Shown here piece after piece: positions 15,743 through 17,976 of a stretch of DNA of 64,000 nucleotides. Source of the DNA: Eledone cirrhosa. Its lineage: Eukaryota. Where the stretch lies: positions 38,936,001 through 39,000,000 of the forward strand of contig OZ024743.1 in the NCBI GenBank assembly GCA_964016885.1. The letters are read 5' to 3'. The notes beneath the pieces were generated by a model. It ran no database searches, was not told the DNA's origin, and saw only the letters and a list, made by a program, of their open reading frames with translations. Each line of letters opens with the position of its first letter. Within the stretch, counting starts at the first letter, position 1. The translations under genes were made by a program, and so were the position numbers.

Positions 15743-16097
15743 ATATATATATATATATACATATATATATATATATATATATATATATATTTTTATATAT
15801 ATATATATATATAAATTGTAATATAATGAAACAAAATTTCTTTTCTCAGTCTTAGTACGGCACTTACTTAAATGTAAGTATGTATGTATACGTACATACA
15901 TATATGTATACAGATGTTCGGTAGCATGCGTATATATATATATACATACAGGTACACATATATATATGTACGTATCAGTTTAGCGGACGTTTATTATAAC
16001 GCCCGCTTTGTTCGTTTGTAAACAAGCGGATAGCCTGATTTATGCTGTACGGTGTTAAGGCAACCACGTCACCTTTTTGTTCAACACTGACACAGGA

Positions 16098-16140
16098 ACG
16101 ATGTACTAGTTTCAAGCTTCTTAGCTATCATCAGCACCGT
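16098..16140 (-). ncRNA. Type I hammerhead ribozyme, copy A
   Basis: Minus: acggtg-CTGATGA-tAGCT(aaga)AGCTt-GAAA-CTAG-TA-catcgt. Confidence 0.8.
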
Positions 16141-16675
16141 ATACCCTTCTGCCAGATGGTTGAACGTTCGAAAGTATATACTTTCCTTATGAAAATTAAC
16201 GGCTGAGCAGCCTAATTTGTATATCGAGTGAGTTCAGTCGGCCAGGCGTACCGAAACTATAAGTTGTAATATAATGAAACGGAATTTCATTCCTCACTCT
16301 TAGTACGGCACTTACTTAAATGTAAGTATGTATGTATACGTACATACATATATGTATACAGACGTACAGTAGCATGCATATATATATATATATATGTATA
16401 TATATATATATATATATATATATATATATATATATATATATATATATATATATATATATATATATATATATATATATATATATACATATATATATATATA
16501 TATATATATATATACATATATACATACAGGTACACATATATATATGTACGTATCAGTTTAGCGGATGTTTATTATTACGCCCGCTTTGTCCGTTTGTAAA
16601 CAAGCGGAGAGCCTGATTTATGCCGTACGGTGTTAAGGCAACCACGTCACCTTTTTGTTCAACACTGACACAGGA

Positions 16676-16718
16676 ACGATGTACTAGTTTCAAGCTTCTT
16701 AGCTATCATCAGCATCGT
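16676..16718 (-). ncRNA. Type I hammerhead ribozyme, copy B
   Basis: Minus: acgatg-CTGATGA-tAGCT(aaga)AGCTt-GAAA-CTAG-TA-catcgt; perfect 6-bp proximal helix I. Confidence 0.82.
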
Positions 16719-17137
16719 ATACCCTTCTGCCAGATACGTACTGATACGTACATATATATATATGTGTACCTGTATGTATATATGTATATATATATATATA
16801 TGTATATATATGTATATATGTATATATATATATATATGTATATATATATATATATAAATATATATATATATATATATATATATATATATATATATATATG
16901 CATGCTACTGTACGTCTGTATACATATATGTATGTAAGTATACATACATACTTACATTTAAGTAAGAGCCGTACTAAGAGGGAGAAATGAAATTTCGTTT
17001 CATTATATTACAACTTATCGTTTTCGGTACGCCTGGCCGACTGAACTAATTCGATATGCAAATCAGGGTGCTCAGCCGTTAATTTTCATAAGGGAAGTAT
17101 ATACTTTCGAACGTTCAACGATCTGGCAGAAGGGTAT

Positions 17138-17180
17138 ACGGAGCTGATGATAGCTAAGAAGCTTGAAACTAGTACATCGT
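17138..17180 (+). ncRNA. Type I hammerhead ribozyme, copy C
   Basis: acggag-CTGATGA-tAGCT(aaga)AGCTt-GAAA-CTAG-TA-catcgt; one helix I mismatch. Confidence 0.78.
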
Positions 17181-17976
17181 TCATGTGTCAGTGTTGAACA
17201 AAAAGGTGTCATGGTTGTCTTAACACCGTACGGCATAAATCAGGCTGTCCGCTTGTTTACAAACGGACAAAGCGGGCGTTATAATAAACGTCTGCTAAAC
17301 TGATACGTACATATATATATATGTAACTCTGTATGTATATATATATATATTTATATATATATATATATATATATATATATATATATATATATATATATGC
17401 ATGCTACTGTACGTCTGTATACATATATGTATGTACGTATACATACATACTTACATATATATATATACATATATATTTATATAATAAAAAAGAAGATTTG
17501 TTATGTGTTCATTACTTTTATTGATCGGCTCAAGATACGATCTTTATACATCTGTTGTGACAATGACAGAATGAGCTTTTGATTCCAGTGTCCGGCCAGA
17601 GAGATACAGATCGAACCTTGAGGTCAAATCGAAACGTGCATCAGTACTCAATAAATGTAATAAAGACATAATAAATCGTCCTTTTTATTATTACTATTAA
17701 ACTCTGCTTAGTACTATAGCACTATACTTATTGGAAACGCATCGAGTGCTCACTCTGGTGAATATATATATATATATATATATATATATAGATATATATA
17801 TATATATATATATATATATAAAGAGAGCGAGAGAGAGAGTGTGTGTGTGAGAGAGAGCGAGAGCGAGAGAGAGATGGGTGACATAGATATATAGATACGG
17901 AGAGAGATAAACTTAGAGGCAGAGAGATAGAAAGATATATTATTGTATGGATGTAAACACATTAATAGATATATAT

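Follow-up and report, generated by a model that had tools for sequence, protein, structure and literature searches.

A high-copy hammerhead retrozyme family of Eledone cirrhosa that is likely inserted into (TA)n microsatellites by Penelope-type enzymes

Results and Discussion

The insertion in the analyzed window

The stretch of Eledone cirrhosa DNA analyzed here (the window, 64,000 nt) contains a single two-armed retrozyme insertion at 15812–17459, the arms of which lie head to head (Table 1). Its three units aligned with each other at 93–97%. As the preliminary description had it, two units are in tandem on the minus strand and a third is inverted on the plus strand, each with a type I hammerhead ribozyme (HHR) core. 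No stop-free frame of 120 amino acid residues was found within 15812–17456, in agreement with the unit having been called ORF-less, and the 578-nt spacing between the predicted cleavage sites of the two minus copies was also reproduced. The released monomer, however, had been put at about 0.5–0.6 kb. The usual unit is 0.45–0.50 kb long, and the 578 nt are swollen by an (AT)n tract of about 170 nt in copy B. Similarly, an AATAAA had been listed after the ribozyme; a single one is present, but it sits in the loop of a hairpin. Nothing favored a role as a poly(A) signal.

The insertion is an ordinary, partly decayed member of its family. Given that the 12-mer of the promoter-like block departs from the family form by one change in each of copies A and C and is lacking from copy B, the locus is probably a dead daughter, and this decayed copy is in itself unremarkable.

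Table 1. Positions of the insertion, its parts and the nearby Penelope-like element (PLE) in the window.
Feature	Position	Strand	Remarks
Two-armed retrozyme insertion	15812..17459		Minus arm, copy B then A; plus arm, copy C; (TA)n outside both ends
(TA)n target flank, long (E3) end of minus arm	15743..15813
57-nt "tail", unit positions 393–449, with hairpin	15812..15868	-	Absent from plus-arm end
Copy A, complete 449-nt unit	15812..16260	-
HHR of copy A, full extended helix I	16079..16165	-	Core 16134–16104; predicted cut 16104/16103
Promoter-like block, copy A	16174..16223	-	U6-type 12-mer 16223–16212, one change from family form; TATA-like box 16180–16174
Copy B, 5'-truncated inside helix I (unit position 104)	16258..16735	-	Core 16712–16682; predicted cut 16682/16681
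Expanded internal (TA)n of copy B	16378–16545	-
Head-to-head junction of arms	16735..16745
Plus arm with copy C	16739..17459	+	Begins just before internal (TA)n; ends at short (E2) site in (TA)n
Promoter-like block, copy C	17055..17104	+	U6-type 12-mer 17055–17066, one change; TATA-like box 17098–17104
HHR of copy C	17113..17199	+	Core 17144–17174; predicted cut after 17174; two helix I mismatches
Decayed PLE, outside the insertion	57709..61645	+	Reverse transcriptase (RT) and C-terminal GIY-YIG-type domain, CX4CX2C linker

The hammerhead ribozyme

A motif scan of the window located the core CUGAUGA-U-AGCU(AAGA)AGCU-U-GAAACUAGUA at +17144, -16712, and -16134. The predicted structure is that of a type I HHR, with the core CUGANGA...GAAA...UH, three helices and an open helix I. 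The long extension of helix I that had been ascribed to the copies is intact in copy A (z -2.99), whose predicted fold keeps the long bulged helix I as well as helix II. The extension does not hold for copy B, which is 5'-truncated, or for copy C, in which ACGGAG stands for ACGRUG and CAU for CCU, giving the two mismatches; the minimum free energy fold of copy C also loses helix II. Searches against Rfam yielded weak HH9 matches to both minus copies, 19.8 and 18.1 bits against a gathering threshold of 52, and no HH9 match to the plus copy. The other Rfam output consisted of many miRNA artefacts of AT repeats.

The U.U opposition at the base of helix II, which had been raised as a caveat, is real: the purine-pyrimidine pair 10.1–11.1 is missing, with U.U in 10 of 11 aligned rows, and the row of a sister family in this 11-row alignment has G-C. 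It is not a defect, as it is family-wide and known from axolotl, where HHR_Amex2 shares the U.U and is reported to show weak cleavage on its own and stronger cleavage as a dimer (PMC7229834). Helix covariation, expected if the description of the ribozyme was right, was found as double changes at 9 of 29 pairs among 11 HHRs from several subfamilies and the sister family. None of 500 shuffles reached the observed values, and the pairing across the alignment was 91%, compared with 28–43% in slid controls. The double changes came mostly from the single sister-family row, and one (G-U to U-G) from a 422-nt subfamily. The unit is thus predicted to carry a self-cleaving type I hammerhead.

Abundance, unit size and relatives

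Copy number was assessed across 3.0 Gb of genome sequence. The 36-nt core had 443 exact matches, and its reversed control had none, so the matches are not due to chance. With two positions left free, the matches rose to 14,051, again with none for the control. With at least 14,051 cores, the wider family hence makes up a considerable class of repeats in this genome. The units are dispersed, high in copy number, arranged in tandem and a few hundred nucleotides long, with one type I HHR each. Moreover, they form a closed repeat with neither coding capacity nor an LTR arrangement, and their GC content is 0.36, i.e., below 50%. These sequence features identify the unit as a dispersed member of the non-LTR retrozymes, a class that has already been described.

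Monomers ranged from 457 to 491 nt at locus L068. In an array of 45 kb at C2:60.569–60.612 Mb (L061–L065 and L071), about 81 units were found, with a median spacing of 503 nt for the 81 cores and a higher-order spacing near 4 kb. Tandem full-length PLEs were considered for the roughly 4-kb core spacing on C2 and rejected, since it is the higher-order repeat of this satellite. A 422-nt subfamily of about 78% identity lies beside the copies. In addition, a young sister family (L068:330–1100 and L083–L102) has a 466-nt unit of about 99% identity with a different HHR sequence, a canonical G-C at helix II, the same promoter block and likewise a two-armed structure. One sequencing run contained 3,373 short contigs that are variants of the family; these contigs say nothing on expression. 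No publication naming the family was found in the literature searched, and it may be catalogued in Repbase, Dfam or the supplements of preprints.

Anatomy of the insertions

The arms of 71 loci were mapped, 140 in total, with one stretch taken per insertion and the 45-kb array handled apart. The loci are a non-random set: 18 were taken from the top of the BLAST hits, and most of the others were picked on contigs C1 and C2 by an exact match to the core, so that core conservation is inflated among them. Of the 140 arm 3' ends, 48 were at E2 (unit position about 392), 46 at E3 (about 449) and 24 in the internal TA tract, so 118 fell at three sites that abut (TA)n. The remaining ends were elsewhere or interrupted (21) or at an edge (1). 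Head-to-head pairs numbered 48 and occurred in 45 of the 71 loci. Wherever both ends of a pair were at E2 or E3 (20 pairs, the one in the window among them), one end was short and the other long, 57 nt apart. The sister family showed the same two types of end, 69 nt apart, and the PLE family found at 57.6–61.6 kb of the window also had short and long ends, about 47–56 nt apart.

These insertions have an inverted 5'-truncated arm, a one-ended tail and a (TA)n target, inside which a target-site duplication is unreadable. For PLEs, (TA)n targeting has been described along with tails and inverted 5' copies (PMC8557442). Similar to the units studied here, PLEs of the Hydra and Neptune/Nematis types are reported to form partial tandems and inverted, 5'-truncated copies with a one-ended tail (PMC8557442), and PLEs are reported to target (TA)n, carry a type I HHR near the 3' end and initiate internally (PMC8557442; PMC11167929; PMC4209133). 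A PLE protein, moreover, is reported to nick and extend both strands of AT-rich DNA and to start inside its own RNA (PMC11167929). The differences are that the tail is 57 nt long here compared with the 30–40 nt given for PLEs (PMC8557442), that the unit has no ORF, that its helix I is long and bulged whereas minimal PLE HHRs have a helix I of 4–5 bp (PMC4209133), and that the unit, unlike PLEs, is a closed repeat without unique upstream sequence.

Penelope-type enzymes therefore likely paste the unit into (TA)n microsatellites. The proposal of the preliminary description that PLE machinery mobilizes the element gained support from the dispersed ORF-less arrays, from short and long ends that are embedded in (TA)n and from units joined directly to PLEs. 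In some two-armed arrays, a PLE segment replaces an arm or sits within one, and a few two-armed arrays were later expanded into satellites.

Candidate helper elements

Direct chimeras with other elements, without (TA)n at the junction, were found in 6 of 72 loci, four of them with coding PLEs. At L065, the 45-kb array lies head to head with a 5'-truncated Hydra-type ORF, which retains an open frame of 752 amino acid residues and the Hydra motifs DKT, CxCX5C, CxxC, and CxH. This PLE ends in a different HHR of its own, whose core reads CUGGUGA. For two of the chimeras, the partner is the family of the PLE at 57.6–61.6 kb in the window: at L073 a short-ended arm of the unit and a long-ended copy of this family (93% protein identity) lie head to head, and at L077 the unit and the 3' end of the PLE are joined on the same strand by a switch with short microhomology. 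A similar same-strand switch, also with short microhomology, connects the unit at L133 with the 3' end of a related PLE subfamily. The partner at L072 and L163 is an HHR-bearing element, which could not be tied to any ORF.

The 57.6–61.6 kb family is thus a candidate helper. The copy in the window has its own, different HHR core at 61390 and a short end at about 61643, and its CX4CX2C linker motif points to the Neptune/Nematis type. Given that Pfam named none of its frames and returned only a GIY-YIG match below cutoff for the Hydra-type ORF, and that a search of PDB returned nothing, the PLE clades were assigned by the motifs described in PMC8557442 and not by a tree. As the chimeras involve at least two PLE clades, they pin no single helper. 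Some of them could be accounted for by separate insertions that were joined by microhomology repair in a shared (TA)n.

Other PLE copies lie nearby. A second, shorter copy of the 57.6–61.6 kb family is found at 39023–40161 with an HHR core at 39922. Adjacent to the insertion, the minus strand at 15170–15742 holds the 3' end of another PLE, which is truncated on its 5' side. This remnant has an HHR core at -15240..15210, the fourth beside those of copies A to C and unrelated to them. A relative of this PLE, with a decayed GIY-YIG domain and a CX4CX2C linker, is located in a TA tract of the 45-kb array (L064 2456–4670).

A promoter-like block shared with host snRNA genes

The blocks upstream of the HHR that are common to both sister families provided the route to host snRNA genes. 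The unit contains a 12-mer that is also found upstream of host U6, U6atac, and MRP genes, together with a TATA box. In the host, all 3 distinct U6 promoters have the 12-mer at -77 to -79 and the TATA at -30, as do 1 of 6 U6atac loci and the single MRP locus; none of the 5 U1 loci does. In the units, the 12-mer was exact in 120 of 127. At non-CpG sites, the 12-mer and TATA box varied less than the rest of the unit (16/1366 vs. 271/9386, p = 1e-4, a p value that treats related copies as independent). The distance from the 12-mer to the TATA box is 43 nt in the unit and 42 nt in the sister family, compared with 47–49 nt in host genes.

The upstream element, as in host U6-type genes, and the TATA box agree with a type 3 Pol III promoter. 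The spacing, which is 5–6 nt short, and two T4 runs per monomer do not, and these runs could stop Pol III. Judging from its match to the host genes, the source array is probably transcribed from this snRNA-type block. No paper on a U6-type promoter in the retrozyme class was found in the literature searched. Two further observations concern the host genes. The U1 promoters (L103–L114) have a TATA-like box near -30, and their upstream word near -59 differs from the U6-type 12-mer. In a tandem U6 array (L121 and L122), a SINE-like repeat is inserted at the TATA box in some units.

The cleavage site and the template

The predicted cleavage site was contained in 95 of the 140 arms, 29 of which contained it at least twice. 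Among all 140 arms, a single 5' end and not one 3' end lay 10 nt or less from it; the idea that 5' ends mark the cut site was not supported. Because the ends avoid the cut site and the arms span it, the usual template cannot be a cut linear monomer. Opposite arms of an insertion differed at 0.56 marker alleles (27 pairs) compared with 2.86 between loci (8,989 pairs), and at L068, 8 of 8 units were identical over positions 5–285. Both arms of an insertion share one source lineage. Given that the arms span the cut site and share source alleles, a re-ligated circle is a simple account, and the template is probably a re-ligated RNA circle.

We therefore favor, with a probability of about 0.72, a high-copy non-LTR retrozyme that PLE proteins copy into (TA)n, the template probably being a re-ligated RNA circle. 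A source array would be transcribed, probably from the U6-like 12-mer and TATA box, and the transcript would read on into the next units. Successive HHRs are predicted to cut it into monomers that reach from cut to cut and hold the whole unit, promoter included. The cleavage would probably be dimeric, as helix III is palindromic and has two base pairs. A host ligase would close these monomers. From the footprints, a complex of PLE RT and GIY-YIG endonuclease would then nick both strands of (TA)n, and two cDNAs would start at fixed RNA sites 57 nt apart. Both cDNAs would extend past the cleavage site, in many cases over several rounds, and would be joined head to head, which would leave two-armed arrays that share source alleles between their arms.

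In the most probable alternative, the PLE helper is the same and the template is a read-through transcript of a tandem array that stays linear and uncut; the HHR would be slow, protein-dependent or active at a different step, and circles would not be intermediates of transposition. The ends do ignore the cut site, and the same footprints would be expected from the uncut RNA of a uniform array. For an anole PLE in vitro, unprocessed RNA is reported to be the main template and HHR cleavage to be dispensable (PMC11167929), a minimal helix III and a U.U at helix II predict low activity of the monomer (PMC7229834; PMC4209133), and dimers of Xenopus retrozymes are reported to cleave in only 1 of 9 cases (Li, Clavereau, Pollet 2026, 10.64898/2026.07.22.740005). 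The internal 5' ends also form a weak cluster at positions 104–109 (6 of 51), near where the promoter would begin, which is a weak hint of a linear template. This alternative is nevertheless unlikely in our view: the core has been retained with compensatory changes across subfamilies and the sister family, multi-unit arms on either side share alleles, fully so at L068, and retrozyme RNA is reported to be mostly circular in coral, mussel and axolotl (PMC7229834; 10.64898/2026.07.22.740005).

That the unit is nothing but the pLTR of an autonomous PLE, with the arrays as truncated by-products, is very improbable. The PLE-type ends and inversions, the PLE ORFs near many copies and the 21 of 57 Xenopus retrozyme families reported to match PLE termini in Repbase, with 24 matching any transposable element (10.64898/2026.07.22.740005), would all suit it. 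In the 71 loci, however, the units were preceded by a further unit, by (TA)n, by unrelated flank or by a junction that occurred only once, foreign upstream sequence never recurred at the same unit position in a second locus, and the PLE ORFs examined end in different HHRs of their own. Constant attachment to an RT-coding PLE, which the preliminary description had named as the finding that would reduce the unit to a pLTR, was looked for and seen at 0 of 71 loci; nor did the unit stand as the 3' end or pLTR of an ORF with RT and endonuclease at any of these loci, a small sample of the family. With 72 loci surveyed out of thousands, a rare parent is possible. We give still less credence to a satellite or MITE-like repeat that spread by DNA-level recombination in (TA)n and bears a vestigial HHR-like motif. 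The recombination-prone nature of (TA)n tracts, the 45-kb array and its spacing of about 4 kb do speak for DNA-level amplification, but such a repeat leaves unexplained the 20 of 20 short and long pairings, the scattered 5' truncation, the strand inversion, the chimeras with PLE 3' ends and the covariation.

Returning to the re-ligated circle, a more specific form of it is tentative and somewhat short of an even chance. The family would be a self-promoting RNA-circle parasite of PLEs that has captured a U6-type promoter in addition to its ribozyme, and two PLE RTs, starting on both strands at a single (TA)n break, would copy the circle round, with more than one PLE clade and with template swapping. 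If so, these insertions would record rolling-circle retrotransposition in the genome, a step that has been proposed and not shown for animal retrozymes in the reports cited here, as the transcription of retrozymes and their copying back into DNA have so far only been proposed (PMC7229834; 10.64898/2026.07.22.740005). The family offers concrete points for tests: the RNA has two sites at which copying would start, the target is defined as (TA)n, the two PLE clades that occur in the chimeras are candidate helpers, and the promoter-like block is open to mutation.

Comparison with known hammerhead repeats

Metazoan non-LTR retrozymes are described as tandem units of a few hundred nucleotides without ORFs and with a low GC content, which is 36% here (PMC7229834; 10.64898/2026.07.22.740005). 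Each of their units has one type I HHR with a short palindromic helix III (PMC7229834), as found in this study. PLEs have been proposed as their helpers from shared HHRs, co-occurrence and similarity to pLTRs (PMC7229834; 10.64898/2026.07.22.740005). In this family, the helper is indicated directly by the anatomy of the insertions, that is, by the two arms, the short and long ends and the chimeras, and no homologous pLTR was found at the 71 loci. Expression and cleavage have been shown for metazoan retrozymes, whereas for the present family they are predicted from genomic sequence. Similar to the unit studied here, newt satellite 2 and the schistosome HHR satellite are reported to be tandem HHR repeats with an internal promoter (PMC2220036). 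The newt promoter is described as a Pol II promoter of the snRNA type (PMC2220036), whereas the motif of the unit matches host U6, U6atac, and MRP genes and not U1.

Other elements near the insertion and at the sampled loci

Decayed LINEs with endonuclease and RT as well as a Helitron remnant (Rep and PIF1) are found in the window at 324–12041 and 50627–55083. An inverted repeat at 19105–19960 has arms of about 430 nt that are 88–91% complementary; (TA)n flanks the arms and (TA)n/(GA)n separates them. An HHR core was not found in this repeat, which may be MITE-like or some other element inserted with two arms. Finally, more unrelated HHR-like cores occur at the same (TA)n sites at L072, L075, L076, and L066, for instance those of a short family with helix III GAAACAGUU; the (TA)n microsatellites at these four loci collect nested insertions.
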